Shown: piece after piece, positions 16,744-63,430 of the stretch
How positions within the stretch are numbered: position 1 is the first letter of the stretch
Layout of the letters: every line of letters starts with the position of its first letter
DNA from: Dehalococcoidia bacterium UBA6627
Lineage (GTDB): Bacteria > Chloroflexota > Dehalococcoidia > UBA2979
Assembly: GCA_002455955.1 (NCBI GenBank)
Contig: DKLZ01000016.1
Coordinates: forward strand, 1,356-65,355
Direction of reading: 5' to 3'
DNA: 64,000 bases
Program-made: the position numbers and the translations under genes
The notes under the pieces: model-generated
Seen by the model: only the letters and a program-made list of their open reading frames with translations
What the model was told of the DNA's origin: nothing
Databases searched by the model: none

Positions 16744-19122
16744 ATGAGCAGTGATCCCGGACGCCGAGAGGTCAGCCCAGAACTGTTTACCAATTCCCCT
16801 AGTCATTCACCCTCTGGTTCTCTCCGCTTCAGTGTTCGCGGCATGACTTGTGCTTCGTGTGTTAGGCGTGTCGAGAAGGCACTTGGGTCTGTCGACGGCG
16901 TAAAAGCTGCTCGCGTTAACTTAGCATCTGAGGAAGCAGTAATTGAGCCTGTTGGCATCTCGATCGAAGCTTTGTGCAATGCGGTCGATACAGCTGGTTA
17001 TGACTTAATTGTTTCTGATCGTGAAGATGAAGCAGCGCGTGACCGTATCGATACTCAGCGTGGTTTTGACTATGAACTTCTTCGTCAGAAGACGATTGTT
17101 GCGGGAGTGATTGCGGCTTTCCTAATTGGATTTATGGGACTAAGCCACTTACTAGGCGTATTGCACGACATCCCACTGCGGCTGCGACATCCCGCGTTCT
17201 TTGTGTTAGCTCTCCCAGTTCAGTTCTGGGCAGGATACGAATTTTATAGAGGTGCTTGGCGTGTGGGTCGTCACGGCTCATCCGACATGAACACACTGAT
17301 TGCAGTAGGCACTTCGGCTGCGTTTGGTTATTCAGTAATTGCGACATTCATTCCGCAGATTCCTGAATCGATCGATGGATTGGATGCGAGTGTGTTCTTT
17401 GACACCTCCTGTGCGGTCATTTTTTTCGTGTTGCTTGGTCGCTTACTTGAGATGCGTGCGAAGAAGAAAACTGCGGACGCGGTCCGTGAGCTGATGGTAC
17501 TTCGTCCAAAGAGAGCACGAGTTCTGGAAGATGGTGAAGAATTTGAAATTCCGATTCGTGCGGTTCAAATTGGAGATGTTGTACTAGTCAAACCTGGAGA
17601 GCAGATTCCTGTCGATGGAGATGTTCTAGAAGGGTCTTCTGCTGTTAACGAATCAATGCTTACTGGGGAGGCGATCCCAGTTGTGAGACGGCCGGGCGAC
17701 AATGTCTTTGGTGCAACGACGAACACTAGTGGCATGCTGAAGCTTCTGGTGACTGCGGTCGATACTGATTCTGCATTGGCACGCATCATCCAGCAGGTGG
17801 AAGAAGCTCAGAGTTCGAAAGCGCCGATACAAGCTCTTGCTGATCGTATATCGAATATATTTGTCCCAGTTGTGTTCTCGATCGCTGTGGCGACATTGTT
17901 ACTGTGGTGGTTGCTCGGTCCCGCGCCTGCATTAACTATTGGTCTCCTGAACGCCGTAACGATTTTGATTGTTGCCTGCCCATGTGCCTTAGGCCTAGCT
18001 ACTCCAACTGCGATCATGGTTGGGACTGGCTTGGCTGCGCGTAACGGTATCTTGATTCGTGATGCTGAGGCACTTCAACGCGCTCGTTCTATCGACACTG
18101 TTCTCTTAGATAAGACAGGGACAATCACGGAAGGGAAGCCTAAAGTAATCCGCATACAAATGATCGATAATTCATCGGTTGATATTGATGAGATGATTCG
18201 ACTTGCAGCTTCTGCGGAGCGTGGGTCGGCTCATCCCTATGCTGTTGCGATTCTTCGTGCGGCGAAAGATCGCGAGGTTATCCTCGACTGGCCGCTTACC
18301 CTCGAGACAATAGATGGTTCGGGGTTAGTGGCGCGTATCGGTGAGCGAGAGATTCTGATTGGAACCAAGGAACTGCTCCGATCTCATGGTATCGCTGCGG
18401 ATGAATGTTCTGTCCTCGATGATCTCGCTGCTGTGGCCGGAAAACAGGGAGAAACGCCGATTCGAGTTGCGATTGACGGCGAAGTTTCCGGATTGATCGT
18501 AGTTGCGGATCAGGTCCGTGAGAGTTCAGTATCTGGTATCGATCACCTCCTAGAGCTAGGTATCCGCGTTGTGATGCTAACCGGTGATCAGGAGCAAACT
18601 GCATCTACAATCGCGCAGGAAGTTGGAATTTCGGAGGTTGTTTCGGAGGCATCTTCGAAAGATAAATTGCAACTTGTGCGCCAGCTCCAGGATCAAGGTC
18701 GGACTGTTGCGATGGTTGGTGATGGTATCAACGACGCACCTGCACTTGCAGCGGCAGACGCAGGAATTGCCATAGGAACTGGTACAGACGTTGCGCTCGA
18801 AGTGTCTACGATGACACTAGTTCGACCGGACATCGGTCGGGTGGCAATTGCGATTAAGATCAGTCAGTCAACCATTCGAACCATGTGGCAGAACCTTGGT
18901 TGGGCATTCGCCTACAATGTTGCCTTGATTCCTGTCGCTGCCGGCATCGGTTTTCTTGTTCTCGAGCTATTTTTCGATGGGACGGCGGTCCCGAACGTTC
19001 TCGAACCAATCTTTGGGAAGAAAGGTTTTCTCAACCCGATCGCTGCTGCTGCTGCGATGGCTTTCTCATCAGTTTCGGTGATGAGTAACTCTCTGCGCCT
19101 ACGAGGAGCTTCTGTCGAATGA
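16744..19122 (+). CDS. copA: Copper-translocating P1B-type ATPase
   Basis: 792 aa. N-terminal HMA 'GMTCASCV', 'TGE', TM6 '[10 protein letters not shown]', phosphorylation site 'DKTGTIT', '[10 protein letters not shown]'. Confidence 0.9.
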
Positions 19123-20778: not shown

Positions 20779-21864
20779 CTATTCGGTACCAATTTCCAGC
20801 ACTGATCGAGCGACCTCACCGCTCTTTAATGCGCTGAATGCTTCGTTGATTTCATCGAAAGCCCATCGTTTCGTTACCAGGCCGTCAATGTCTAGTTTTC
20901 CCTGTTGATACAGTTCGAGTATCCGTGGCATATCAGTGTGGAACCGCGCCGAACCATAGAAGCTACCTTTCAAGGTTTTTTCCTGTCTCCAGATCATTCC
21001 AGAGACTTCGATTTTCTCCATTGGTGGCACCATTCCGACAATTACAGCCATGCCGCCGTTCTTTGCCATTTCATACGTCTGTTCAGAGGTTACTTTCAGT
21101 CCAATTGCCTCAAAGCCGTAATCTACGCCCCCTCCGGTCAACTCCTTCACGGCCTCGATTGGGTCATTCTCGCTAGCATTTACTGTGTCTGTGGCACCGA
21201 ATTCTTTCGCTATGTTTAGTTTATGTTCGACCATGTCCACCGCGATGATTTGCCGAGCTCCTGCGAGTCGAGCGGCCTGAATGATGTTCAGCCCTATGCC
21301 ACCAGCTCCCACTACCGCGACTGTAGAACCGGTGTCTACCTTTGCGGTGTTAACGACCGCACCGTAGCCCGTCATCACAGAACATCCGACCAGCGCCGCC
21401 ACATCTAAACTGATGCTGTCGGGTATCTTGAGCAGTCCTGACGCTGGCATTACCGATTGCTTCGCAAAACCACCGATGTTTGCCATTTGTGTCACAGATT
21501 GGTCACCGAGCTTGATTGCCGGGTTATCGCGTTTCCGTGCTGAGGTTCGTGTAGTACATAGGTTTGGGTGGCCAGAGTCGCAGTATTCGCAATGTCCACA
21601 AGGTTGAACAAAACCCATGATTACACGGTCACCTTCAGTGACGTTCGTTACGCCCGGACCTAGCCGCTCAACAATTCCTGCAACTTCGTGTCCGAGTACC
21701 ATTGGGTATTGCCCTGGGTAAGTTCCTTCAATGAAGTGCAAGTCGGAGTGACAAACGCCGGCTGATATGACACGAACTAGCGCTTCTCCGGCGACGGGTT
21801 CATCAATCGTCAGGTCAGTAATTTCGAGAGGAGTCTGGGCCGCGTTAAGGACTGCTGCTTCCAT
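20779..21864 (-). CDS. Zn-dependent alcohol dehydrogenase, MDR superfamily (class III-like)
   Basis: 361 aa. Motifs: 'GVCHSDLH', 'LGHEVAGIV', structural Zn 'CGHCEYCDSGHPNLC', Rossmann 'VVGAGGIGLN'. Confidence 0.8.
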   Translation of the reverse strand: MEAAVLNAAQTPLEITDLTIDEPVAGEALVRVISAGVCHSDLHFIEGTYPGQYPMVLGHEVAGIVERLGPGVTNVTEGDRVIMGFVQPCGHCEYCDSGHPNLCTTRTSARKRDNPAIKLGDQSVTQMANIGGFAKQSVMPASGLLKIPDSISLDVAALVGCSVMTGYGAVVNTAKVDTGSTVAVVGAGGIGLNIIQAARLAGARQIIAVDMVEHKLNIAKEFGATDTVNASENDPIEAVKELTGGGVDYGFEAIGLKVTSEQTYEMAKNGGMAVIVGMVPPMEKIEVSGMIWRQEKTLKGSFYGSARFHTDMPRILELYQQGKLDIDGLVTKRWAFDEINEAFSALKSGEVARSVLEIGTE

Positions 21865-30286: not shown

Positions 30287-31564
30287 CTATACATCATCTA
30301 TACCCAGACGCTTAACCAATGCTGCACGAGCGTCGGCCGTGATTTGTTGTATCTCGATCGGTTCGAAACCAAGCGAGCTCAGGATTTCCTCGTTGTGTTG
30401 TCCCAGTGATGGTGGTGGCGATTTTGTCGGGCCAGTCGTGCCATTAATATGCACCAAGTTTCCGATCAGACGGTGTTTACCAAAGGTTGGAATCTCTTGT
30501 TCGATGATGTAATCGTTTGCCAGTACTTGTGGATCAGATAGCACTTGGTCGTAATCTTGAACTACATCCCAGACGACCTCCGGTCGTCCTTGAAGGAATT
30601 CGGCCCATTCAGCAGTCGTTTTTCCTTTGAACGCTTTTTCCAGATAAGGTCTGATTTCATTCGCTGTTTCACTACGTGCGCGTTCAGAATCCTCGCCAGT
30701 TAATCTAGTTACGGCTCGTTTCGCTGCTGAGTCGAACCGTTCGTCGAGAATGAGTTCGTCCAGTCCCGCAAACATACAGAACGCAGCCCAGGTGGATTCA
30801 TCCTGCATGAACGCGATCATAATCGCGCCATCGGATGTCTCGTATAGACCATAAGTGCCTGCGACACTGGCCATATGACTACCTTCGCGAGTAAGAGGCT
30901 TGGCGGTTAATGACACAGTGTCCAATTCCCACTTCTGTAGGAAGAGTTGAGCGCCAAGCGCTGACACATCGACTCGTTGGCCACCTCCGTGACGCGCCCG
31001 AGCTGCGAGTGCAGTGGTAATACCCAGTGCGAACTGCATTGCCCCAGCGAGGTCGGCGAACGTTGTTCCTGGCATCACTGGCGGACCATCGCTAGGTCCG
31101 TTCACACTGTAGAAGCCCCCTCTGGCGCCAGCCGAACCATCCAGCATTCGTTTGTCTGCATCTGGCCCTTGAGGTCCGTAACCATTGACTAACCCATAGA
31201 TTAGGTTTTCGTTTCGATCTCTAAGCTGGTCATAACCCAGGCCCATCTCAATAAGTGACCGTTCCATGTAATTGCTTACAAAGACATCGGCGTTGTCGAT
31301 AAGTCGACGTACGATTTCCAAAGAGGATTCTGAGCGAAGGTCTAGCCATAGCGACCGTTTGCCACGGTTTGCACTTATAAACTGTGTGCCGAAACCTCCT
31401 TCAGCTAATCTATCCATACTGCTGACTAGGCGATTTGGGTCCCCGAGTGCACCTTCGACTTTGATCACGTCAGCTCCCATGTCGGCAAGGTATTGACTAG
31501 CGATTGGTCCCTGCAGAGCTCGGGCTACCTCGATAACCTTTATACCGTCGAATGGTTCCCTCAT
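30287..31564 (-). CDS. Family III CoA-transferase (CaiB/BaiF family), copy 3
   Basis: 425 aa. 'FDGIKVIEVARALQGPIASQYLADMGADVIKVE', 'NRGKRSLWLD', 'LGQHNEEILSSLGF'. Confidence 0.8.
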   Translation of the reverse strand: MREPFDGIKVIEVARALQGPIASQYLADMGADVIKVEGALGDPNRLVSSMDRLAEGGFGTQFISANRGKRSLWLDLRSESSLEIVRRLIDNADVFVSNYMERSLIEMGLGYDQLRDRNENLIYGLVNGYGPQGPDADKRMLDGSAGARGGFYSVNGPSDGPPVMPGTTFADLAGAMQFALGITTALAARARHGGGQRVDVSALGAQLFLQKWELDTVSLTAKPLTREGSHMASVAGTYGLYETSDGAIMIAFMQDESTWAAFCMFAGLDELILDERFDSAAKRAVTRLTGEDSERARSETANEIRPYLEKAFKGKTTAEWAEFLQGRPEVVWDVVQDYDQVLSDPQVLANDYIIEQEIPTFGKHRLIGNLVHINGTTGPTKSPPPSLGQHNEEILSSLGFEPIEIQQITADARAALVKRLGIDDV

Positions 31565-43271: not shown

Positions 43272-44444
43272 CTACCCGTAGAGACGACGCATTACGCGAT
43301 ATATGTTGTTGCGCTGTACTTCATTAGCGCCTTCGTATATGCGTTGTACTCGATGGTCACGGTAGATTCGTTCGATTGCTGATCCGCGTATGTAGCCGAT
43401 GCCTCCATGCATTTGAAGTGATCGGTCGATTGTCTCTTCGGCAGCTTCCGTCACGAAGGTCTTACAGATTGATGCTTCTGACTCGATGTTCTCTCCAGCG
43501 TCAGACATGAGAGCGGTTCGGTATGTAATCGACTCTGCTGTGTAGAGAGAGATTTGCATATCAGCGAGAGTGTGTTGTGCCACTTGCTGGTCGCCCAGTG
43601 TGCCTCCGAAAAGTTCTCGTTGATGGGCATATTCCCATGCTAATTTCACTGCTTCCTTCGCCATTCCCAGTGATATCGCAGCTATTCCAATGCGTGATTG
43701 ATTCAGTGTGCTAAGAGCATGTTGGAGTCCAGTGTTTTCGTCACCAATCAGTCGGTCACGGTCGATGCGAACGTTGTCATACACAATTTCGGCAGTGTCC
43801 GAAGCACGGATACCCATCTTATCTTCGAGACGGACTATCTCTAAGCCTGGAGTGCCAGCGTCAATTACGAATAACGAGATGCCTCGGCCGCGTTGCGCAG
43901 GATCGGTTTTCGCGAACGTGACAAAATATTCAGCGAGCTGGCCGTTGGAGATAAAGTTCTTCTGTCCATTGATGACGAAGTTATCCCCGTCAGCAAGTGC
44001 AGCAGTGGCCATTGCTGGAACATCACTACCAGCACCAGCTTCGGTGAGGCAGAAAGCGCCCACTCCTTTTCCCTGTGCCATCGGGGTCAGGAAGCGTTTC
44101 TTTTGTTCGTCGCTTCCTGCAACCGCGATCATGCGTGCGGCGAGCCCCGAAGATGCGGCAACGAGTACAGCTGTTGAGGCATGCGCTCGGGCGATCTCTT
44201 CCTGAACGATAGTGAAGCCAATCTCGCCCATCGCTGATCCGCCCCAACGTTCTTCGAACGGAGCCCCGAAATATCCGAGTTGTCCGATTTTGTCGATTAA
44301 GCTGCGGTCGATTGCACCGGCCTCCTCCATCTCATCTACTCGAGGTCGCAGTTCCCGGGTAGCGAAATCTCGAACAGCGAGTCGAAGTGGATCGATATGC
44401 TCAGGGAGTTGTACGACCATTAAGAGCTCCTTAGGTTTCGACAA
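43272..44444 (-). CDS. Acyl-CoA dehydrogenase
   Basis: 390 aa. 'FCLTEAGAGSD', 'NGQKNFISNG', C-terminal catalytic-Glu region 'QRIYEGANEVQR'. Confidence 0.9.
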   Translation of the reverse strand: MSKPKELLMVVQLPEHIDPLRLAVRDFATRELRPRVDEMEEAGAIDRSLIDKIGQLGYFGAPFEERWGGSAMGEIGFTIVQEEIARAHASTAVLVAASSGLAARMIAVAGSDEQKKRFLTPMAQGKGVGAFCLTEAGAGSDVPAMATAALADGDNFVINGQKNFISNGQLAEYFVTFAKTDPAQRGRGISLFVIDAGTPGLEIVRLEDKMGIRASDTAEIVYDNVRIDRDRLIGDENTGLQHALSTLNQSRIGIAAISLGMAKEAVKLAWEYAHQRELFGGTLGDQQVAQHTLADMQISLYTAESITYRTALMSDAGENIESEASICKTFVTEAAEETIDRSLQMHGGIGYIRGSAIERIYRDHRVQRIYEGANEVQRNNIYRVMRRLYG

Positions 44445-44662: not shown

Positions 44663-45889
44663 GTGATTATGTTTAACAGGAACAACCAACTTGACGTCCT
44701 TGGAGCTCAAACTGCAGAAGAAGTAGACCACCCAACAGGTCCCGACGTCGGCGAACGCATGCCCGATATCACTCTTCCAGATCAAACTGGCACGCTTGTC
44801 AATATCGAGGAGACTCGTGGAGATCGCCGAGCCTTAGTGGTGTTCCATCGCTCATTAGTTTGGTGACCATTCTGTCGGTCGCAGCTCGTGCAGCTGCAAG
44901 AAAATCTGGATAAGTTCGAACAAGCCGGTATTTCTGTCTTTGCGATCTCTTATGACTCTGTCGAAGCGCAAGCCGATTTTGCAGAAAAGTTCGGAATCAC
45001 TTATTCCCTCCTTTCAGATGTAAATAGCGACGCGATAGAAGCGACGGGGATTCTAAACGTACAGGCTGTACCCGAGAAATCAGTTGGGCCCGGGCTTGCT
45101 GCATCGGAGCAGACGATTTTGAAGGTTACTCCCTTCAACACGGAAAAGGTCGAGGCGAACCTTGGCTCGTCGTTCTACGGTATTCCGTATCCGGGGTCAT
45201 ATCTCATTGGTACAGATGGCCGTGTGATCGAGAAGCTCTTTTATCGGCACTATCGCACCCGGCCATCAGCTGAGACTGTGCTTCGAAGTGGCTTTGGTGT
45301 GGACTTCGAAGTGCATGACAATCCTTCAGCTGAATCTAGCGGAAAGGGCGTGAACATCCGAGCTACGCTGGGGTCTAAATCAATGACGTACATGGAAGCA
45401 TCGCTTCTTTATGTAGAAATCGATCTGGCTGATGGTCTTCATCTCTACGGATCGCCAGTACCCGATGGCTATATAGCGACGACAGTCACTGTCACTGGTC
45501 CGGAATCCGTTGAGGTCGGACCAGCGCGGTACCCGGAAACTCGCCCTTTTGAAGTCACCGGCCTCGATGAATCATTTCAAGTCTTTGATGGCGCACTAGA
45601 AATTGCGGTCCCCGTGTACTACGTGCAAGAAGACTTCGAACATCTTTTGCGTCGGTCACATTTCCTAGCTAGTGACCTAGAGGAGCCTAGTGCTGGGGTT
45701 GTGCGTCAACTCATCGCGCACGCCGAGGCAACACGTCCACCACCGGACACGTCTGTCGAGCTCGACGTGTCAGTTAAATATCAGGCATGTACAACTGATG
45801 CTTGTCTCATTCCTCAGGAGCAAAGTTTTAAAATGGACATCCCGATCGTGCGAGTCCAAGTCAACAATTCCACCAAACCCAAGGATTAG
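44663..45889 (+). CDS. Selenocysteine-containing PRX-like (AhpC/TSA 'WCPxC'-type) redoxin fused to a DsbD-N-like domain; in-frame TGA at 44864-44866 read as Sec
   Basis: ORFs 44663..44866 and 44888..45889 share one frame, separated by a single TGA. The joined sequence is 'RALVVFHRSLVW-U-PFCRSQLVQLQENLDKFEQAGISVFAISYDS'. A hairpin lies 14 nt after the TGA. The C-terminus has 'VSVKYQACTTDACLIPQ'. Confidence 0.7.
44881..44897 (+). promoter_or_regulatory. Candidate bacterial SECIS hairpin (GCAGCU-CGUGC-AGCUGC)
   Basis: Perfect 6-bp stem with a 5-nt loop containing GU. The loop is about 22 nt 3' of the in-frame UGA. Possible lower-stem pairings are CCA(44867-69)/UGG(44907-09) and UUCU(44870-73)/AGAA(44899-902). 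Confidence 0.5.
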
Positions 45890-45906: not shown

Positions 45907-45982
45907 TGGCACCCCCGGAAGGATTCGAACCTCCGACCGGCGGATTAGAAGTCCGCTGCTCTGTCCACTGAGCTACGGGGGC
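45907..45982 (-). tRNA. tRNA-Arg (anticodon UCU), CCA encoded
   Basis: Manual cloverleaf: acceptor GCCCCCG/CGGGGGU, D-arm GCUC-AGUGGACA-GAGC, anticodon arm GCGGA-CUUCUAA-UCCGC, variable loop CGGUC, T-arm GGAGG-UUCGAAU-CCUUC, discriminator G, CCA. Confidence 0.9.
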
Positions 45983-48144: not shown

Positions 48145-48645
48145 CTACGACTTACTCACGGACGTTTCTCTCGTGAACACCTTCTTCAGGCCAGGAAAGA
48201 GCTGACGGGTATCGGCAATCTCGAGGCGGTCGATATCACTGCTGGTGGTGACAAAACGCTGCAGCCAGCTTCCAATCGGTTGTGAAGCAATAGTAGCCAG
48301 CATCGCAAATGTAGCAGCGTTGATGAATGTATCACCACGAGACTGCCGTTCAGTGCGATGTTCCGTCCCTAAGACGACAGCGGCGGTTAAGAATCCTGTT
48401 ATCAGGATGTTCGTACCACATAATGGAGAGACGACGAGCTCGCGCTGTCCTTGTTGGATTCGATTTAGAGCCTCGCGTGCACATTCGTCTAGAACTTCTA
48501 GATCCACGTCACCGATTATGAAAAAGCCATTCTCTCCTGCTCGCCCGGCGATCCGCTGTGCTCCATAGCGTTCAAAAAGAACGGTCACGGTAGCGTGCTC
48601 TAACCCATGATTACGGCGGATTGCGTTGATCCAGCCTCTGAGCAT
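48145..48645 (-). CDS. Hypothetical protein (two predicted TM or hydrophobic segments; 'HGLEHAT' motif)
   Basis: 166-aa ORF with a GAGGA RBS. No family recognised by eye. Confidence 0.55.
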   Translation of the reverse strand: MLRGWINAIRRNHGLEHATVTVLFERYGAQRIAGRAGENGFFIIGDVDLEVLDECAREALNRIQQGQRELVVSPLCGTNILITGFLTAAVVLGTEHRTERQSRGDTFINAATFAMLATIASQPIGSWLQRFVTTSSDIDRLEIADTRQLFPGLKKVFTRETSVSKS

Positions 48646-48694: not shown

Positions 48695-50047
48695 TCATGG
48701 TGAACGGCTGGTTCCGGGTGCAGCAACTTCAAATTCGGCGAATACATGAACCTTGATTTCTGTTGAGCCTGATGCATTCGGAGATGCGATCACAACTGTT
48801 CCCGAGGCATTTGTAGCACTCAGTAGCGTCGGATTAATGGTGATCGTGAATTCGCCGTCAGGACAACCTGCTGCGGAGCACGGTGTTCCGTTACCAACCG
48901 CGCTACCGGCTGGTGGATCTACGACTAGGAAGCTGTCAGACGGTATTGCAGACCACGATAGGATGCGAGTTCCTGGATTTGCGACACGAATCGTTGCACT
49001 TTTTTGCGCGGGCGTTCCATTCACATGTATCGTCACGGAGTCGTCGTTTACTCTTAATCGTGGCTCGCCTATCAGTTGGGCAGCTTGGTCGTTCGATGTT
49101 AACGGGATTTGAGTTCGGTGTGCGGGTTGCGGTGTAGGGATATCCATTGCTTGATAAGGAGAAGTAAAGTTTGCCAGTCCGATCGCATTAAAGAACTGAG
49201 GTTGAGTGAAATCCGGAAGAGTTACTGGAACAGGTACCCAGAGGTCATTACCACCTCGTTCAGCCGGATTTGCCATGCAGCCGATGACTAGTTCCTGATA
49301 GGGATAACGTGATCGTGATTGTGTTCCATCGCAGAGATATTTGGCTCGTGGCCAGCTGAGATTTGGATCTAAGGGATGGTTACTCTTCTTGGATCCGAGA
49401 CTCGTGAAACCGTTATAGCTCCAGATTGCGTAGTACCAGTTTTCGAGCAATGTAGGGTCGCCAGCAGTGTCGGTGCCGACGATCGGTCGCGAGCTGGGTG
49501 CGTCATTCCATTTCGCAGCAAGGATACGGGCGCCGCGAGCGATATTGTGTGCGTCGCTTGTGGCTACCGCGATCTGGTTATCGCTGGGATGTCCTGCAGT
49601 ACCCAGCGGAACAGTCATTCCACTAGTTACTTGCATGATTCCATGGCCGCAGTCGAAAGAAACGAGAGCGGGGCCAATAGATTCGAAGCGCGTTGATTTC
49701 GATGCCATCGTTAGAGAGGATTCCACCCAACCGATTGCCCGTAGGACTTCTACCGGAATCGCTGCAATGCCATCGGCTCGATTACTACGTGTTCCAACTT
49801 CTACCGCCGGTAGCCTGAAGAAAGAATCACTCGGAAAAAGGCGATTTTGCGAAGCTGCATCGATCATAAGTAAGTAGCGATTGCGAAGCGCATCTGCCTC
49901 GTAGGCTGTGGGGCGTAGCGGATCGAATGCACATGCTTCTGCAGTTGGAGTTGTGTTACGTATTCCTAAAACTAATGCACCGAGAATGAAGCCGAGCAAC
50001 AACGCTCGGTGGATAGTCCTGGAAGCGTGTCCCGCGGGCCTATGCAC
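48695..50047 (-). CDS. Secreted or membrane-anchored lytic transglycosylase (SLT) domain protein with a C-terminal beta-sandwich region
   Basis: 450 aa. N-terminal hydrophobic segment 'ALLLGFILGALVLGI'. SLT motifs in order: 'AIGWVESSL' (catalytic Glu-Ser), 'GHGIMQV', 'AHNIARGARILAAKW', 'WSYNG'. Confidence 0.65.
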   Translation of the reverse strand: MHRPAGHASRTIHRALLLGFILGALVLGIRNTTPTAEACAFDPLRPTAYEADALRNRYLLMIDAASQNRLFPSDSFFRLPAVEVGTRSNRADGIAAIPVEVLRAIGWVESSLTMASKSTRFESIGPALVSFDCGHGIMQVTSGMTVPLGTAGHPSDNQIAVATSDAHNIARGARILAAKWNDAPSSRPIVGTDTAGDPTLLENWYYAIWSYNGFTSLGSKKSNHPLDPNLSWPRAKYLCDGTQSRSRYPYQELVIGCMANPAERGGNDLWVPVPVTLPDFTQPQFFNAIGLANFTSPYQAMDIPTPQPAHRTQIPLTSNDQAAQLIGEPRLRVNDDSVTIHVNGTPAQKSATIRVANPGTRILSWSAIPSDSFLVVDPPAGSAVGNGTPCSAAGCPDGEFTITINPTLLSATNASGTVVIASPNASGSTEIKVHVFAEFEVAAPGTSRSP

Positions 50048-51173
50048 CGGACCAGCCTAGGAATAATAGGTCGCTGGTCGCGGTAATTTCCACTCGAGTA
50101 GATGCGCCCCCTAAGATCACAAGTGTTTCGTCCCCTGGGTCACGTGAACCGGTTCCACTAAAGTGTCTAACAGCAAGATAAGTGCCGTCGACGCTCCAAC
50201 CGAGAGGGACATCAAACCCAACAGGTGCAGCAGGAAGGATAATTTTTTCAGATGCGGTGATCACAATTGGTGCCGAACCCGATGAACTATTCGTGGAACA
50301 TCCGATTGCTAGAGAACCGTCATATCGCCAGCGGGGAGAGTATTGTTCACCTCGGCTCGTATCTACTGGCGCTGTGATATTGCCTTCGTTAAGCGAGACG
50401 ATCTGTGCTTGGTGAATGATTTGCTCACGCTCAAGCACAGGAGTCACAAATGCGACCGCATTACCATCAGGTGCGACAGTCCAGTCACGAGCAATTTCAT
50501 CCGAGGCGTGGAGCAGTACTTCCAGATTGGAGCTTTCGGTAACACGCAGGAGATCGGTACCTGATGGGGAGATGCGTGTGAACAGAAGATTCCCTTTCTC
50601 ATCAAAGCCTATCGGGAATACTCCGAACTCTGATTGATCGGTATGAAGTACGCGTCGAGTTCTGGTTTCTAAGTCGACACGGATTAGTGATTGAGCTCCA
50701 CTATCCTCGGTTCGTCGGTAGACAAGTATCCCACCATCTTCTCGTAGTATCGGAGCTACTAACAGGTCCGCGTCACGTGCAAGACGTACTTTCGAGGTGG
50801 TTTTGATATCGAGCACCCATAGTTCGGCTGCGCTACTTCTGTCAGGTTGTATGTCAGAAGGGAGGACGGTGAAGGCAGTACGCCCGGCAACCATTTCAGG
50901 TGCTGGATTAATCCCCCATCCATCGGCGTGTGGTACTGACTGGATTAGAGTTAATGACTCTGGATTGGCCGCAGGAGCAATTAAAATTTTGTCGACTGTG
51001 CTACCAAATTCGGCAAATACTAGTAGTGGTTCCTCCATCACGACCGGTCTATAGGGTGACTCGCTGGACTCGCGTAATGCAGCAAACAGAATGGCGATCG
51101 CTGCCAGAGCCAGCAGGGCAGCTGATACGGAAAGAGCGCGACCAAACCGTGGTAGGCGAGGTTGAGAAACCAT
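50040..51173 (-). CDS. Membrane-anchored beta-propeller (PD40/TolB-like repeat) protein
   Basis: 377 aa. N-terminal anchor 'ALSVSAALLALAAIAILFAAL'. Repeated 'xPDGxxxAF'-type blades: 'VAPDGNAVAFVTP', 'WSVDGTYLAVRH', 'WRYDGSLAIG'. Overlaps the SLT gene by 8 nt. Confidence 0.55.
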   Translation of the reverse strand: MVSQPRLPRFGRALSVSAALLALAAIAILFAALRESSESPYRPVVMEEPLLVFAEFGSTVDKILIAPAANPESLTLIQSVPHADGWGINPAPEMVAGRTAFTVLPSDIQPDRSSAAELWVLDIKTTSKVRLARDADLLVAPILREDGGILVYRRTEDSGAQSLIRVDLETRTRRVLHTDQSEFGVFPIGFDEKGNLLFTRISPSGTDLLRVTESSNLEVLLHASDEIARDWTVAPDGNAVAFVTPVLEREQIIHQAQIVSLNEGNITAPVDTSRGEQYSPRWRYDGSLAIGCSTNSSSGSAPIVITASEKIILPAAPVGFDVPLGWSVDGTYLAVRHFSGTGSRDPGDETLVILGGASTRVEITATSDLLFLGWSGA

Positions 51174-56405: not shown

Positions 56406-57878
56406 TTGAGACACCCTATGTCCATTGAATACGTGCCAACACTAGCAGAAGTGCATCGCCTTAAAGATCAAGGGAATATCATTCCCATATACAGAGAGGT
56501 TCGAGCGGATCTTGAAACTCCAGTTTCGGCTTATCTTAAGGTGGCGCAAGGGCCCTATTCGTTCCTTTTAGAATCTGTTGAGGGTGGTGAACGTCTAGGG
56601 CGTAATTCTTTCATCGGTACTGAGCCTTACCGTGTTATTGCACTTGATCAAGAAGATGGCGACCCACTTGGCGATATCGAAAACGAGCTAGGTCGTCTTG
56701 AAGCAGTCCATGTCCCTGGTCTTCCCCGTTTTAATGGAGGAGCTGTTGGTTATCTCAGTTGGGAAGTTGCCAGGCACTTTGAGGATCTCCCGATTGCTGG
56801 CCCAGACGTTCTTGATCTTCCGCAATCATGGTTGATGTTCACGGAGACATTATTGGTATTCGATCACCTTATGCACTCGATCAAAGTCGTATCGCATGTG
56901 CGGCTTGATGGAGATATCGATTCTGCATACCAAGAAGCTGTCGACAAGATTGATGAATTGGTGACACGTCTTGAAGCGCCATTAGGAGCTCTGCCGTACG
57001 TTCCGTTTGACGGTGTTGCGGGACAACCACTTCGCGAAAATTGGTCTCGAGATGCCTATATTAACGCTGTCGAGAAGACGAAAGAGTACATCGTTCAAGG
57101 CGACATCATTCAGGGAGTTATTTCTCAACGATTTTCTCGAGAAACAGGCGCACATCCATTTGAGGTCTATCGCAGCCTGCGGGCGATCAATCCGTCCCCT
57201 TATATGTACTTTTTAAAGTTTGACGAGACTTACATCGTCGGGTCGTCACCTGAGCTTCTCGTGAATATTGAAGACGGATTAGTCGAGGTTCATCCGATCG
57301 CCGGTACACGCCGCCGTGGAGATAATCTCATCGAGGATGAGCACCTCGCTGCGGAATTAGCACAAGATCCGAAGGAAATTGCGGAGCATGTCATGCTCCT
57401 TGATCTTGGACGAAATGATGTTGGAAGAGTTGCAAAGGCTGGGAGTGTCGAAGTTACCCAGCAGCTTGATATTGAATACTACTCGCACGTAATGCACCTA
57501 GTGAGCCATGTCCAAGGTCAATTACGTGAAGAGATGTCAGCTTATGACGCGCTTCGTGCTGCATTCCCTGCGGGGACCGTTTCCGGTGCGCCCAAGATCC
57601 GAGCGATGGAGATCATCGCTGAGTTAGAACCGGACCAACGCGGTCCGTACGCTGGCTCGGTAGGTTTTTTTGATATGTCAGGCAATGCTGAAACATGCAT
57701 AACTATCCGGACATTGGTGATGAAAGATGGTTGGGCTCACGTGCAGGCGGGTGCTGGGATCGTTTTCGATTCTGATCCGGAGCGAGAGTACGAGGAGTGT
57801 CGGCAGAAGGCTCGTGCGCTGATCGCCGCTCTAGATGATGCTGAGAATAATGAACCGACCGGAAGCCTCGGGTACTGA
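56406..57878 (+). CDS. trpE: Anthranilate synthase component I
   Basis: 490 aa. 'LLESVEGGERLGRNSFIG', 'NPSPYMYF', 'IAGTRRRG', 'GRNDVGRV', 'GAPKIRAMEII'. ATG at 56418 is an alternative start. Confidence 0.9.
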   Translation: MRHPMSIEYVPTLAEVHRLKDQGNIIPIYREVRADLETPVSAYLKVAQGPYSFLLESVEGGERLGRNSFIGTEPYRVIALDQEDGDPLGDIENELGRLEAVHVPGLPRFNGGAVGYLSWEVARHFEDLPIAGPDVLDLPQSWLMFTETLLVFDHLMHSIKVVSHVRLDGDIDSAYQEAVDKIDELVTRLEAPLGALPYVPFDGVAGQPLRENWSRDAYINAVEKTKEYIVQGDIIQGVISQRFSRETGAHPFEVYRSLRAINPSPYMYFLKFDETYIVGSSPELLVNIEDGLVEVHPIAGTRRRGDNLIEDEHLAAELAQDPKEIAEHVMLLDLGRNDVGRVAKAGSVEVTQQLDIEYYSHVMHLVSHVQGQLREEMSAYDALRAAFPAGTVSGAPKIRAMEIIAELEPDQRGPYAGSVGFFDMSGNAETCITIRTLVMKDGWAHVQAGAGIVFDSDPEREYEECRQKARALIAALDDAENNEPTGSLGY

Positions 57879-57890
57879 GGACGATCGACC

Positions 57891-58817
57891 ATGGTAGACC
57901 CCGTGTCGAAGCACTCGGAACTTGTGGAAGAATCGACCCTTAGCTCAGCGGCGGTACTGCGTCGCGATGATGGTCGAGTATTGCTGCTCCAGTATTTGGA
58001 TGATGGCAGTCCATTCGCAGGTCGGTGGTCTCTGCCTATGATGAGCGTTAACGGTAATGAGACTTCGGAAGAGGCTCTGGTGCGCTTGTTACGAGAACAT
58101 GTTTACGTGGATCCCGGAGCATTCGATTTCGAGGAAACCATTTATGTTGAGTCAGACAGTGGGATGCGTTTCGTAGTGAATGCTTTCATCTGTACTAGTT
58201 GGCACGGGAAACCTCGGTTTAGCAGTAGCTATTACGCGGACGCGGTTTGGGCACATCCTGCGAATCCATCAATTACAACAGGTCTATTACCCGAATTCCG
58301 GGATTGGTTAGCGCGTTCACTCGGTGGTTCACTATATCGATATACGGTTGATGATCTCTGCGAACATTTGGATGAAACGCGTGGAGCACTTTTAGCAGCA
58401 TTTGAATCAATTCCTGATCAAGCTCGTGGTGAGAATAGAGGTGACAAACTCTCAGCGGTCGATGTGCTTGCGCATGTCGCTGATGTTGAAGCGTACTGCT
58501 TAGCGGAGATCGATCGACTACTTCGCATACCAGGGCATACTTGGCGAGATTTCAACAATGCTCAGTGGTTTGATTTGTACCGACTGCAGGATTATTCAGA
58601 AGGTTTTCCTGCGTTACGTAAGCGTCTTGATGCCTGCCGTGATCGCACGCGTTCTTGGCTCACCAGTCTCGAAGATGCGCAGCTTGTTCAGTACGGAAAC
58701 CATGCTGAACGAGGTGCAGTTCGGATTGGTGATCGTATCGAGAGCATCGCTCAGCATGAAAGCGGACACACGGGCTACCTACTTGCACTAGCAGAAGAAG
58801 TTTCCAAGCTAGAATAG
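57891..58817 (+). CDS. Two-domain protein: Nudix-fold domain with a degenerate Nudix box, plus a DinB-like four-helix-bundle domain
   Basis: 308 aa. N-terminal 'GRWSLPMMSVNGNETSEEALVRLLREHVYVD' has Nudix spacing off by one and lacks the catalytic EE. The C-terminus has DinB-type His-containing helices: 'DVLAHVADVEAY' and 'IAQHESGHTGYL'. Confidence 0.6.
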   Translation: MVDPVSKHSELVEESTLSSAAVLRRDDGRVLLLQYLDDGSPFAGRWSLPMMSVNGNETSEEALVRLLREHVYVDPGAFDFEETIYVESDSGMRFVVNAFICTSWHGKPRFSSSYYADAVWAHPANPSITTGLLPEFRDWLARSLGGSLYRYTVDDLCEHLDETRGALLAAFESIPDQARGENRGDKLSAVDVLAHVADVEAYCLAEIDRLLRIPGHTWRDFNNAQWFDLYRLQDYSEGFPALRKRLDACRDRTRSWLTSLEDAQLVQYGNHAERGAVRIGDRIESIAQHESGHTGYLLALAEEVSKLE

Positions 58818-58836
58818 CGACATAACGAAAAGACGA

Positions 58837-59430
58837 GTGCCGATGCTTTTGCTTATAGATAATTACGATTCGTTCACATTTAATCTTTATCAATATTTGT
58901 CAGAACTTGGTTCCGACGTAAAAGTTCATCGTAATGATGAGATTTCCGTCGAGGACTGCCTGACAATGAACGCAGACCAGATCGTAATCTCTCCTGGGCC
59001 GTGTACACCGAAAGAGGCAGGGATTTCAGTTGATTTGGTTAGGGCGGCAGCAGGTAAAGTACCTCTGTTAGGTGTATGTCTCGGCCATCAGGCAATTGGT
59101 GAAGCGTTTGGCGCCGAGATTGGTTATGCGGGAGAAATTTTGCACGGCAAAACATCGATGATTGAGCACGATGGCCAAGGTGTCTTCTCAGGCATGGCCA
59201 ATCCTTTTGAAGGGATCCGTTATCACTCTCTCGCGATAGACCCTGATACCGTTCCGGACGAACTTCAGGTGACTGCATGGTCTGAGAGTGGCGTGATTAT
59301 GGGCATACGACACAGGACTCTTCCAGTGGAAGGGATTCAGTTTCACCCAGAGTCGATCATGACGAAGATGGGCCATGAAGCCCTCGCTAACTTTCTTCAT
59401 GTAGACCTGCCGGAAGAACTCCACAGCTAG
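58837..59430 (+). CDS. trpG: Anthranilate synthase component II (glutamine amidotransferase)
   Basis: 197 aa. 'LLIDNYDSFTFNL', nucleophile 'GVCLGHQ', 'IQFHPES'. Confidence 0.9.
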   Translation: MPMLLLIDNYDSFTFNLYQYLSELGSDVKVHRNDEISVEDCLTMNADQIVISPGPCTPKEAGISVDLVRAAAGKVPLLGVCLGHQAIGEAFGAEIGYAGEILHGKTSMIEHDGQGVFSGMANPFEGIRYHSLAIDPDTVPDELQVTAWSESGVIMGIRHRTLPVEGIQFHPESIMTKMGHEALANFLHVDLPEELHS

Positions 59431-59454
59431 GTACTGATAAAGGGCGGACACGTC

Positions 59455-60501
59455 ATGATTAAGGAAGCGATCGCAGCCATTATCGACGATGGCCGTGCTC
59501 TGACCGAAGATGAAGCTCGCTCTGCTATGGAGGACATAATGCGAGCTGGCCTTGGCGAGGAAGAGATTGCGACACCTGCACAATTCGGTTCGTTTGTGAC
59601 TGCGCTAAGGATGAAAGGTGAGACTGTTGACGAGATCGTAGGAATGGCGAAGGCGATGCGATCGCATGCACTTCACGTCGACATTCAATTACGTCCACTT
59701 CTCGATACAGCTGGCACTGGAGGCTCGTCACGGAAGGTATTTAATGCTTCAACAGCAGCTGGGTTCGTTGCTGCAGCAGCCGGAGCGACCGTTGCAAAGC
59801 ATGGCAATCGTGCGATGAGTTCACAGTCGGGCTCGGCTGATTTATTGGAGGCACTTGGTGCGGAGATATCTCTTACACCGGCTCAGGTTTCTCAGTGCGT
59901 CGAAGAGACAGGGATAGGATTTATGTTCGCTCAAGCGTTTCATCCGGCGATGAAGTTCGCTGGGCCGCTCAGACCGCAGGTCGGTGTGCGTACGATTTTC
60001 AACATCCTCGGGCCACTGACAAACCCGGCCGGGGCGAACTGTCACGTTATGGGAGTAGCCAATGTAGAACTGGGGGAGAAATTAGCACAGGCTCTTGCTC
60101 GTCTTGATGTCCGTCAGGCGTTAGTAGTGAGTGGCGCTGATGGGCTCGACGATTTGACAGTTACTGGTCCTTCGAACGTGTTTGATGTGAAAGGGGGACA
60201 GGTCACTCGTAAGACTGTCACTCCATCCGATCTTGGTGTGTCTGTTCATGAATACTCCGATATTACCGGAGGAACACCTGAGGAAAATGCCGAGATATTG
60301 AGGCAAGTCTTTCGTGGAGAAGGACCCAGAGCGGTGCGCGATCTCATTGTTGCCAATGCTAGTGCTGGTTTGTACGTCACTGGCCTTGCCGCTTCGTTTA
60401 AGCACGGTAGCGAACTAGCGAATCAGGTGATCGACAGCGGTGACGCAGCAGCGAAAACGGCCGCTTTCGTTGAAGCGACTCGACGTGTGACGGCGAGCTG
60501 A
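59455..60501 (+). CDS. trpD: Anthranilate phosphoribosyltransferase
   Basis: 348 aa. 'LLDTAGTGG', 'KHGNRA.SS.SGSADLLEALG', 'NILGPLTNPA'. Confidence 0.9.
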   Translation: MIKEAIAAIIDDGRALTEDEARSAMEDIMRAGLGEEEIATPAQFGSFVTALRMKGETVDEIVGMAKAMRSHALHVDIQLRPLLDTAGTGGSSRKVFNASTAAGFVAAAAGATVAKHGNRAMSSQSGSADLLEALGAEISLTPAQVSQCVEETGIGFMFAQAFHPAMKFAGPLRPQVGVRTIFNILGPLTNPAGANCHVMGVANVELGEKLAQALARLDVRQALVVSGADGLDDLTVTGPSNVFDVKGGQVTRKTVTPSDLGVSVHEYSDITGGTPEENAEILRQVFRGEGPRAVRDLIVANASAGLYVTGLAASFKHGSELANQVIDSGDAAAKTAAFVEATRRVTAS

Positions 60502-60507
60502 TTTGTT

Positions 60508-61371
60508 ATGACTGAAACTAGTGCGACGCGTGAGACCGGAACTTTTCTTGATAAAATCGTCGCGGCTCGTCATATCCGACTATCTGAGGATCGTGTAGTA
60601 CGTCCCAGAGCACTCCTTGAAGAGCTATTAGATCGGGCACCACCTGTACGTGACTTTGAAACGCTTTTGCGTCACGGTCGACTAGAAACGCCAACTGATG
60701 CGTGTGTTCGCCTAATTGCGGAGATTAAACGGGCCTCTCCTAGTAAAGGCTTGTTGAATTCTGATCTGGATGCTGTTGAACAAGCTCGACTCTACGCACG
60801 TGCAGGAGCTGCAGCGATATCAGTGCTCACGGAGCCGGACTTTTTCGCTGGTTCCATCCAAGATCTGGAGGCGGTTAGCAGTTCGTTTAGCATTGATGTT
60901 GACCGTCCTGCGCTACTCCGCAAAGAATTCATTTGGGATGAGTATCAGATTATTGAGGCGCGAGCGTTTGGTGCTGATTCCTTACTGTTGATCGTAATGT
61001 TGCTTGAATCGGATGTATTGCGGTCGCTGATTGCGTATACGCGAGAGCTAGGTATGGAGCCATTGATCGAGGTACATGACGAACTAGAGTTAAAAAATGC
61101 TCTTGATGCTGGCGCCCGCGTCGTTGGTGTTAATAACAGAGACTTGACAACGTTTGAAGAGGATCTCGAAACGACAGAGCGACTTTCTTGTCTGATTCCG
61201 GATGAAGTGACTTTAGTTGCAGAGTCGGCGATACGCACGACCGACGATTCGTCTCGAATGATCTCCGCCGGTGCACACGCATTACTTATTGGGGAAGCTC
61301 TTGTGACAGGCGACGATGTCATGAAGCGTGCACATGAGTTCATGGTCTTGTCATCCGAGGTGAATCGATGA
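60508..61371 (+). CDS. trpC: Indole-3-glycerol phosphate synthase
   Basis: 287 aa. 'LIAEIKRASPSKG', 'AAAISVLTEPDFF', 'LRKEFI.DEYQI.EARA.GADS.LLI', 'VGVNNRDL'. Confidence 0.9.
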   Translation: MTETSATRETGTFLDKIVAARHIRLSEDRVVRPRALLEELLDRAPPVRDFETLLRHGRLETPTDACVRLIAEIKRASPSKGLLNSDLDAVEQARLYARAGAAAISVLTEPDFFAGSIQDLEAVSSSFSIDVDRPALLRKEFIWDEYQIIEARAFGADSLLLIVMLLESDVLRSLIAYTRELGMEPLIEVHDELELKNALDAGARVVGVNNRDLTTFEEDLETTERLSCLIPDEVTLVAESAIRTTDDSSRMISAGAHALLIGEALVTGDDVMKRAHEFMVLSSEVNR

Positions 61372-62111
61372 CCTTAGTCAAGATATGTGGGAACCGAACC
61401 CCGGAGGATGTGATTGCTGCTGCTGCTGCTGGAGCAGATTTCGTTGGCATGGTATTTGCAGAGTCAAAACGCCAGATAGATGTGACCGAAGCGCAAGCGA
61501 TGGTGCGAGCGTTGGGAGCTTCGCTCTCAGAGTATGAATTAAGGATTCCTCCACCGGTACAGATGCAGGCGGCTGAGGAAATCGAGCCATGGTTTCAAGG
61601 CGGTTCCTCGCTGATAGAGAGTTACCTTAGAGAAAAGCGGCCGCTAACTGTCGGAGTGTTTGCTAATCAGGAGGTTGATCAGGTCAACGAGCTCGCTGAA
61701 GAGGCAGGGGTAGATCTCGTACAGTTGTCTGGTCACGAAAGTTGGGAAGATTGTCTTCGCATTACTCGCCAGGTGATTCAAGTAGTGCACGTCTCATCAT
61801 TCGACTCACCATCCGATCCATTTTCAAAGATGGAACCTGGCTTTTCTGTTGCTGTTGGACTTGATTCGGTAGCTGGGCCTTACCAAGGAGGTTCGGGGCA
61901 TACGTTCGATTGGGAGATCGCACGTCAGATCGCTGACCGAATTCCTATTATGCTCGCGGGAGGATTAACCCCTGAAAATGTTGGTGAAGCAGTCCACGTA
62001 GTCGAGCCTTGGATTGTCGACGTCTCGAGCGGTACTGAAACTGACGGTCGCAAAGACCACGATCTTGGGAGAGCATTCATCAATGCTGTAGATCAAGCGG
62101 ATGCAGAATAG
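61368..62111 (+). CDS. trpF: Phosphoribosylanthranilate isomerase
   Basis: 247 aa. 'VKICGNRTPEDV', 'GADFVGMVF', 'VQLSGHE', 'LAGGLTPENV'. Overlaps trpC by 4 nt. It carries an insertion of about 35 aa after the first beta-alpha units. Confidence 0.85.
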   Translation: MTLVKICGNRTPEDVIAAAAAGADFVGMVFAESKRQIDVTEAQAMVRALGASLSEYELRIPPPVQMQAAEEIEPWFQGGSSLIESYLREKRPLTVGVFANQEVDQVNELAEEAGVDLVQLSGHESWEDCLRITRQVIQVVHVSSFDSPSDPFSKMEPGFSVAVGLDSVAGPYQGGSGHTFDWEIARQIADRIPIMLAGGLTPENVGEAVHVVEPWIVDVSSGTETDGRKDHDLGRAFINAVDQADAE

Positions 62112-62152
62112 AGAGTGTTTTGTAACCGCAGAAGCACAGGGGCAGTATTAAG

Positions 62153-63430
62153 ATGTCGGAGCAAATAGGAAAAAATGTTCATACTGCTAGAGAAGAAGGT
62201 AGTTCGATCTTGAGTCGTTCTATAGGGGAAGAAATTAACGTTCCGGGCAGCGGTCTACCGGATGCAGGAGGTCACTTCGGCGATTTCGGAGGACAGTATA
62301 TCCCTGAAACTTTGTTACCAGCGGTTACCGAGCTTACAGAGGCTTACCAGGATGCGATGGCTGATGATGACTTCCATGCGCGCCTTGATGATCTGCTTCA
62401 TCATTATGTAGGTCGTCCGACACCGCTTACGTTTGCTGAACGATTATCAGAGTGCATTGATGCGAAAATATATCTAAAACGTGAAGATCTTACGCACACT
62501 GGTGCACACAAAATCAACGCAGCACTTGCACAGGGCTTACTCGCTCTTCGAATGGGTAAGCGTCGCATCATTGCCGAGACAGGGGCCGGTCAGCATGGTG
62601 TCGCTACCGCGACGGTATGTGCATTACTCGGCCTTGATTGTGTCGTTTACATGGGTTCCGATGATGTGAAACGGCAGGCGCTCAATGTTTTCCGAATGAA
62701 ACTTCTCGGTGCCGAGGTGCGTACTGTTCACTCTGGCTCGCGAACGCTAAAGGATGCTACGAACGAGGCAATCCGTGATTGGGTTACAAACGTACGCGAT
62801 ACTTACTACGTCATCGGTAGCGTCGTTGGACCCCATCCTTATCCGATGATGGTTCGTGATTTTCAATCAGTAATTGGCCGCGAGGCACGTATGCAGATTC
62901 TCGACCAGGAAGGCATTCTGCCAACAATCGGTATTGCGTGTGTCGGAGGTGGATCTAACGCCATTGGACTCTTTTACCCTTTTTTAGGAGACCAGATACG
63001 ACTGATTGGTGTAGAGGCGGCAGGAGAAGGTCTATCGGGTCGTCATGCCGCTACCTTGTCTAAGGGGAGCCCTGGAGTTCTGCATGGTGCCAAGTCAATG
63101 TTGCTTCAAGACGAGTGGGGACAGGTCACTGAGGCACACTCAATCTCGGCTGGTCTGGACTATCCTGGCGTCGGACCTGAGCATTCATGGCTGAAACTCA
63201 CTAAGCGAGTTGAATACCATGCTGTCACCGATAAGGAAGCACTAACTGGGCTCGAGTTCCTGTGTCAAAATGAAGGTATTGTCCCGGCACTCGAGTCCTC
63301 ACATGCAATTGCTTATTTACTTAAAATCAAGGATGAATTGTTCTCGGATGATGTTGTGTTGCTGAACTTAAGTGGGCGTGGTGACAAAGATATGAATACT
63401 GTTGCAGATGCCTTGGATGTCACCCTTTAG
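62153..63430 (+). CDS. trpB: Tryptophan synthase beta chain
   Basis: 425 aa. '[15 protein letters not shown]', PLP-Lys '[13 protein letters not shown]', 'ETGAGQHG', 'GGGSNAIG'. Confidence 0.9.

Follow-up and report, generated by a model that had tools for sequence, protein, structure and literature searches.

The 64,000-nucleotide stretch of DNA analysed here (the window), from Dehalococcoidia bacterium UBA6627, contains a redoxin-like locus that gene callers split in two, and the question that this locus raises is whether the TGA triplet at the split ends a gene or encodes an amino acid. Two open reading frames (ORFs), 44663..44866 and 44888..45889, share a common frame in which the TGA at 44864-44866 is the sole interruption, and read-through across it gives the product ...RALVVFHRSLVW-[UGA]-PFCRSQLVQLQENL..., which, with cysteine replacing the stop, was matched by the Pfam families AhpC-TSA (spanning the UGA) and DsbD_N. 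The first-pass annotation of this DNA had proposed two ORFs in one frame, split by the TGA alone, and both the frame and its read-through sequence were confirmed. Its joining of the ORFs likewise stands, but its start at GTG 44663 and length of 408 amino acids are probably to be corrected: orthologue N-termini point to ATG 44669 as the likelier start, which favours a product of 406 amino acids. The best overall explanation, which we hold at a probability of roughly 0.9, is a single complete gene (44669..45889, forward strand, as are all of its features given below; 406 codons and a TAG stop at 45887-45889) for a cytoplasmic selenoprotein with two redox centres, in which selenocysteine (Sec) would be inserted at UGA-66 under the direction of SelB and an mRNA hairpin. 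On comparative sequence grounds, the conserved in-frame UGA almost certainly encodes Sec.

A protein search of 5.8 billion sequences returned 168 relatives, most of which align with about 80% of the query and start at 'MQLQ', a GTG seven codons past the stop; about 100 of the 120 matches listed are cut at the Sec site. A minority of homologues (P0067, P0068, P0071-73, P0078 and P0082) are full length, read VFHRGxAW-C-PFCRTQ and are colinear with the joined product through the UGA site. DNA was examined for five of the 'truncated' metagenome relatives and for 28 loci from GTDB species-representative genomes, two of the five metagenome contigs being the same records as genome loci and 27 of the 28 genome loci being readable; codon-level analyses were made on 29 TGA loci and the stem-pairing alignment on 28. 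Every readable locus was found to have TGA at the same codon, with an open and conserved frame before it; neither TAA, TAG nor any sense codon occurs there. The putative Sec codon (U66, 44864..44866) aligns with the Cys of full-length homologues and is TGA in 29/29 orthologous loci. These loci, at identities of 28-76%, come mostly from Dehalococcoidia/Chloroflexota metagenome-assembled genomes (MAGs), while Thermomicrobiales, Acidimicrobiia and 'Pseudomonadales' contribute one MAG each; orthologues are present on the chromosome-level MAGs OZ252250.1 (L013) and OZ244557.1 (L007). One locus was left unscored, as a run of N at about 2560-2670 of CAZHMF010000093.1 (L019) masks the stretch with the Sec codon. 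Two loci vary around the site while keeping both the TGA and the hairpin described below: L030 (9995-10054) has the redox motif U-A-F-C, with Pro changed to Ala, and L031 (9998-10057), from the MAG labelled Pseudomonadales and the most distant orthologue at 28% identity, has a U-P-P-C-W motif and the loop AGGUG in place of CGUGC or GUN.

Among the orthologues, mean pairwise identity was 0.61 for the 45-residue stretch before the UGA and 0.62 for the one after it, against 0.42 for the rest of the protein. The conserved TGA and the equal identity on its two sides therefore effectively exclude two independent genes, a pseudogene or a sequencing error. The possibility of two separate genes, named in the first-pass annotation as what would overturn its reading, thus falls, since the upstream 45 residues are as conserved as the downstream ones; its proposals that the UGA replaces the first Cys of a CxxC motif and that homologues would align on both sides of the UGA agree with the Cys forms, which read WCPFCRTQ at the site. 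The mis-annotation that it foresaw is widespread, as nearly all database homologues are called from 'MQLQ' and one was given Trp at the TGA. In that last case (P0098, locus L036, JGI contig Ga0679466_0512305, gene 429-1457) the public call reads ..SAEWWPFCK.., while the DNA has the TGA and the hairpin; the Trp presumably comes from an alternative genetic code applied to the gene call.

A hairpin of the selenocysteine insertion sequence (SECIS) type lies at 44881..44897, just where the first-pass annotation had placed its GCAGCU-CGUGC-AGCUGC element, with the 5' arm GCAGCU at 44881-44886, the loop CGUGC at 44887-44891 and the 3' arm AGCUGC at 44892-44897. It begins 14 nt 3' of the UGA, its loop begins 20 nt after the UGA, and its folding energy was -7.5 kcal/mol alone and -9.0 in context. 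The published model of the bacterial SECIS (bSECIS) sets a loop of 3-9 nt, an upper stem of 4-16 bp and a G in the first two loop positions (PMC13188914), together with 16-37 nt from UGA to loop and a minimum free energy of at most -7.5 kcal/mol (PMC13188914). With its 5-nt loop, G at position 2 followed by U, 6-bp stem and 20-nt spacing, the window hairpin lies within all of these limits, which bears out the SECIS-compatible geometry claimed for it. Like the bSECIS consensus (E. coli fdhF type), it is a stem-loop within the coding sequence, with G then U in the loop and an upper stem in the 6-7 bp range; unlike that consensus, it is a minimal element with neither the conserved lower stem nor the bulge. 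An Rfam scan of the window gave no match beyond a tRNA.

The six stem pairs form in 28/28 aligned TGA loci. In two of these (L028 and L032) a G-C pair has become A-U through synonymous changes at two codons (Gln CAG to CAA and Leu CTG to TTG), which makes the change compensatory, and a third (L025) has a C-G to U-G wobble in the stem. Many orthologues encode Glu rather than Gln at the codon that closes the loop; their stem gains a seventh pair, the loop shrinks to a GUN triloop, and this 7-bp variant folds at -10.1; the GU is always within the loop of TGA orthologues. Covariation is too sparse to carry the argument, so synonymous-site suppression and the contrast with Cys forms were relied on instead. 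Normalised codon entropy was 0.33 for the stem codons (+5 to +10) against 0.65 for other conserved degenerate codons (Mann-Whitney p = 0.002), and the lowest six-column entropy window of the whole gene in the 29-locus codon alignment was found at +1 to +10. Among the six-fold-degenerate Leu codons, Leu+7 is CTC in 26/29 loci and Leu+10 is CTG in 27/29, whereas Gln+11, directly past the stem, is unconstrained (16 CAA, 12 CAG). In seven relatives whose codon at this position is TGC or TGT, only 2-5 of the 6 pairs persist in register and the hairpin forms in none of them; it is thus kept in 29/29 TGA orthologues versus 0/7 Cys-codon relatives (Fisher p = 1.2e-7). Conservation of the hairpin, unlike the hairpin itself, is beyond chance. 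Of the checks laid down in the first-pass annotation, the one on conservation came out in its favour (kept in every TGA orthologue, synonymous sites suppressed, one compensatory pair), and the one on folding did so in part, in that the hairpin does form but is no more stable than chance would give (z = -0.30).

Several observations weigh against the selenoprotein reading. The hairpin is short, its energy alone (-7.5) sits exactly at the model threshold, a 62-nt fold of the region is thermodynamically ordinary against shuffles (the z score just given), and when the same criteria are applied after each of the 2520 TGA triplets of the window, a qualifying hairpin turns up at 2.1% of them; with this pass rate and z score, the hairpin alone is therefore weak evidence. 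Covariation amounts to one compensatory pair in two related loci, a score reached by 53 of 500 shuffles, and the conservation signal is mostly invariance, which stems in part from the conserved peptide QLV(Q/E)LQ. Neither ARAGORN nor Rfam detected a tRNA-Sec in the window or in 30 orthologous loci, and no SelA, SelB or SelD is present among the 55 Pfam-annotated ORFs of the 64-kb window. Finally, the electron relay between the two domains that is proposed below rests on analogy with the DsbD and ScsB proteins.

As regards decoding capacity, Sec machinery was also absent from the 20-kb flanks of 30 orthologous loci (about 600 kb), a tblastn search with an E. coli SelD query gave no match, and the only tRNA found in the window by ARAGORN and Rfam was a tRNA-Arg(TCT). 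For genomes of about 3 Mb, the lack of Sec machinery in the window and flanks is uninformative; since none lies in the window, Sec decoding is something that we infer. Of the 51 Pfam-supported ORFs of the window, 16 end at an ordinary TGA stop, including those at 653-655 and 19120-19122, both of which the first-pass annotation had cited in arguing, correctly, that the genome is not TGA-recoded. Further genes with an in-frame TGA were sought in the window and none was convincing. BSepDB, which takes in only species having a Sec pathway (PMC13326102), places two Dehalococcoidia MAGs among the ten most selenoprotein-rich bacteria, with 46 and 49 predicted genes (PMC13326102). A paper on Dehalococcoidia (Mukai 2017) was considered and set aside, having no bearing on UGA decoding.

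In three Dehalococcoidia/Chloroflexota genomes the orthologue is directly followed by a second candidate selenoprotein gene, at 10735-12255 of L011 (TGA 11014), 10770-12233 of L017 (TGA 10983) and 10824-12224 of L033 (TGA 10983). Its N-terminal domain is of the AhpC/TSA type and reads ...LALHVFASW-U-[AV]GCR[KR]HVPGWH... with a conserved in-frame TGA, about 20 nt after which stands the hairpin CGUGCC-CGGGU-GGCACG; a weak tetratricopeptide repeat (TPR) signal occurs mid-protein, and the Cys pair in its C-terminal 'YFVCDDATGVCMY' recalls DsbD_N. The window has no equivalent of this second UxxC gene. Together, the BSepDB lineage data and the second gene give indirect support to Sec decoding.

Among the alternatives to Sec, recoding of the UGA to another residue is the one that survives best, and it is still improbable. 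It would require either a SelB- and SECIS-dependent system of the tRNA-Cys(UCA) type that inserts Cys, or near-cognate read-through with Trp; a conserved TGA with its hairpin does indicate SECIS-directed recoding rather than the identity of the residue, and one pipeline assigned Trp to an orthologue. A CxxC centre with Trp as its nucleophilic residue would, on the other hand, be inactive, and the Trp assignment presumably came from an alternative translation table, while TGA is a common stop in the window. SelB/SECIS-dependent systems that insert Cys are known as rare exceptions, and the lineage is one catalogued with a Sec pathway and many selenoproteins.

Still less credible is a genuine stop, which would make the locus a split gene, a pseudogene or two genes, the latter a peptide of 65-67 amino acids and a protein of 333 amino acids from GTG 44888. 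Every gene caller gives the split model, an in-frame GTG stands 21 nt past the stop in the window and its orthologues, and no Sec machinery was seen in the window. Against this, the 333-residue product would have neither the first two strands of the peroxiredoxin fold nor either active-site residue of UxxC, purifying selection across 29 species acts as strongly upstream of the TGA as downstream of it, and the stop codon is TGA throughout, never TAA or TAG. Moreover, the Cys forms are single unbroken genes, synonymous sites are frozen precisely over a hairpin at SECIS distance, and the supposed GTG start is the Val codon of the hairpin loop, conserved within QLVQLQ. A sequencing or assembly error can be dismissed: TGA is only one base from TGC or TGT, but the same TGA recurs in about 30 independently assembled genomes and contigs from different studies and is accompanied by a hairpin that true TGC/TGT genes do not have.

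The N-terminal domain of the predicted selenoprotein (residues 27-187, 44747..45229) belongs to the AhpC/TSA family of peroxiredoxin-fold, thioredoxin-like proteins (PF00578, E = 3.4e-23, 82.4 bits against a cut-off of 26) and carries a subfamily-specific insertion of about 29 residues (137-165, 45077..45163) that is absent from homologues of the 264-amino-acid class and from the Cys forms. A full-length Cys homologue was modelled with AlphaFold2 (AF2; predicted local distance difference test score, pLDDT, 94; predicted template modelling score 0.89), and the N-terminal domain of this model superposes on structures of BCP/PrxQ and AhpE with target template modelling scores of 0.78-0.85. The redox motif W65-U66-P67-F68-C69 (44861..44875) aligns with the WCPFC of Cys forms and with the T/S-x-x-C_P of AhpE and BCP, C_P being the peroxidatic Cys; in the sequence alignment to those structures Sec66 falls on the Thr/Ser and Cys69 on C_P. 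The full PxxxT/SxxC_P signature is not present, as Sec (Cys in homologues) occupies the T/S position and the signature Pro is missing (FHRSLVWU). With Sec at Thr/Ser and Cys69 at C_P, the site is therefore a W-C-x-x-C site in the style of thioredoxin, ResA and tryparedoxin on a peroxiredoxin (Prx) scaffold, and not that of a TxxU peroxidase; the first-pass reading of the UGA as the first Cys of a CxxC motif fits this placement, with Sec opposite the Thr/Ser and not the peroxidatic Cys. The protein thus resembles canonical Prx proteins (AhpE, BCP/PrxQ) and the TxxU Prx selenoproteins in overall fold and Pfam family, and differs from them in having Sec in the place of Thr/Ser and a second Cys in that of C_P. 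From the sequence, thioredoxin/ResA-like disulfide exchange would be expected rather than classical peroxidase catalysis. No hydrophobic N-terminus or signal peptide was seen when the N-terminal sequence was read by eye.

The C-terminal domain (residues 215-406, 45311..45886) is an immunoglobulin (Ig)-fold domain similar to DsbD_N and ScsB-alpha (PF11412, E = 2.9e-8, 34.2 bits against a cut-off of 25). A search of this domain against the PDB by sequence gave no significant match, and fold comparison alone succeeded: with an AF2 model of the window's own domain (pLDDT 93.7), the eight best PDB matches in foldseek were all to the ScsB N-domain 6c29 (E = 2.6e-6) and the DsbD N-domains 6dnv, 6dps and 3pfu, with E values up to 3.7e-5. 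A 37-residue subfamily insertion within the Ig fold (residues 317-353, 45617..45727) was apparent from the alignment and from AF2 helices at 109-122 and 127-140 in domain numbering. Conservation identified a Cys pair, C374...C379 (YQAC-TTDA-C-LIP, 45788..45805), as a putative second redox centre: across 52-57 homologues, Q372, C374, C379 and P382 (YQAC-x4-C-x2-P) show little or no variation, the two Cys being invariant in 52 sequences and at least 90% conserved in 57. A family designated Unknown_3 was ruled out as a match for this domain, having three Cys that include a CxxC. In the joined protein Pfam reported only AhpC-TSA, Redoxin and DsbD_N, and the central DsbD/CcdA transmembrane domain was not found.

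In the systems to which this domain is related, nDsbD and ScsB-alpha act as reductants of thioredoxin-fold partners, among them CcmG, DsbC, TlpA/PprX and PrxL, and Caulobacter ScsB passes electrons in trans to the Prx-like protein PrxL and to a TlpA/PprX pathway (PMC3322552). The window protein shares with them the Ig-like fold, the DsbD_N match and the YQxC...C.xP Cys pair. It differs in that the Ig domain is fused to its presumed partner in one soluble chain, with neither a membrane DsbD/CcdA core nor a signal peptide, in that the Cys are spaced as C-x4-C, and in that the partner centre holds Sec. By analogy, the fusion looks like a DsbD/ScsB donor-acceptor pair joined in a single soluble chain.

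The mechanism that we propose on this basis begins with SelB, which, carrying Sec-tRNA(Sec), would bind the hairpin 14 nt 3' of UGA-66 and insert Sec there in place of termination. Sec66 and Cys69 would then form a W-U-x-x-C centre of the thioredoxin/ResA type on the peroxiredoxin-fold scaffold, with Sec66 as the exposed nucleophile that would form a selenenylsulfide with Cys69, and the Cys374/Cys379 pair would most likely exchange reducing equivalents with this centre, either in cis or between subunits. The protein would thus probably be a two-centre thiol/selenol:disulfide oxidoreductase. The insertion of Sec itself, the direction of electron flow and the substrate are what we infer from these comparisons.

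As for the family to which the protein belongs, Prx-like UxxC selenoproteins were reportedly predicted by Kryukov and Gladyshev in 2004. The combination of UxxC with PF00578 is now an established predicted selenoprotein family, the 'Prx-like thiol:disulfide oxidoreductase' (PMC2398784, PMC9312934, PMC13188914), and under the name 'Prx-like 1' it numbered 225 sequences in the Global Ocean Sampling (GOS) data of Zhang and Gladyshev 2008 (PMC2398784). The first-pass annotation was accordingly right in its remark that marine metagenomes had already yielded UxxC redoxin selenoproteins, this family being GOS 'Prx-like 1' (PMC2398784). By BLASTP, read JCVI_READ_900765 of the GOS Dataset S1 ('#Prx-like 1') is 33% identical to the window protein over 256 amino acids (E = 3e-43); it reads ...LFHRSADWUPYCKAQLVELQ...AISYDS...GILNT...YPG... 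and runs on into the second domain, and therefore the family and even the fused architecture had been sampled by 2008. That read has a signal peptide, which the window protein does not. Prx-like 1 and the window protein have in common the AhpC/TSA domain, the Trp followed by UxxC with Sec first, and a hairpin within the coding sequence directly behind the UGA; Prx-like 1 is, however, catalogued by its Prx-like domain only, and the window protein has two subfamily insertions. Within the window subfamily, Sec forms far exceed Cys forms. No NCBIfam model reached its cut-off, the best being the SelL-related redox protein NF040769, which shares the Prx-like fold and the location of the redox motif; the window protein scores 54.7 bits there where 120 are required, and is therefore not a member of that group.

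The window gene is thus a further, mis-annotated member of the known Prx-like 1 selenoprotein family. No description of a DsbD_N-type C-terminal domain was found in the literature on the Prx-like family (PMC2398784, PMC9312934, PMC13188914), and the unremarked fusion of a Prx-like UxxC domain to a DsbD_N-like domain is the sole mildly new element. In the selenoprotein catalogues consulted, no relay that pairs a selenenylsulfide with a disulfide in two centres is described. It can be suggested, as a conjecture that is more doubtful than probable, that the Prx-like Sec domain and the DsbD_N/ScsB-alpha-like domain constitute a self-contained cytoplasmic relay of this kind, with Sec as the dominant and possibly ancestral form in marine Dehalococcoidia, which in some species may act with the neighbouring second UxxC selenoprotein, the whole amounting to a lineage-specific selenium-dependent redox module.

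In practical terms, current annotation presents the gene, like about a hundred of its relatives in the databases, as a truncated 'peroxiredoxin', 'redoxin' or 'hypothetical' protein without its active site, and correct gene models require read-through of the UGA. With this locus the large selenoproteome of marine Dehalococcoidia gains a well-supported member, and the fused architecture could show DsbD-type Ig domains at work outside the cell envelope; knowledge of Sec decoding is unchanged by the locus.

On one side the selenoprotein gene is flanked by a divergent acyl-CoA dehydrogenase gene (43272-44444, reverse strand). On the other, the tRNA-Arg(TCT) gene (45907-45982, reverse strand) lies 17 nt past its stop on the opposite strand, and the selenoprotein gene is therefore monocistronic. 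A tRNA-Arg(TCT), with a reported length of 79 nt and its anticodon at position 38, also occurs about 7 kb from the orthologue in L007.

Elsewhere the window contains three family-III CoA-transferase paralogues and three Zn-dependent alcohol dehydrogenases (9224-11775, 30287-31564, 2214-3230, 7377-8432 and 20779-21864), as well as enoyl-CoA hydratase, acyl-CoA dehydrogenase, electron transfer flavoprotein (ETF) alpha/beta, thiolase-like and methylmalonyl-CoA-mutase genes. Such paralogue-rich content would be expected of SAR202-type Chloroflexota and is in line with the taxonomic placement of the nearest orthologues. Two adjoining ORFs on the reverse strand, 48695-50047 and 50040-51173 (450 and 377 amino acids), had no Pfam match at E <= 1e-5 and are adjoined by a gene for a DUF6391 protein (48145-48645, reverse strand). 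A tryptophan-biosynthesis cluster at 56406-63430 (forward strand) comprises trpE, trpG, trpD, trpC, trpF and a trpB-like PALP enzyme, with an ORF for a DinB_2-domain protein (57891-58817) situated between trpE and trpG.

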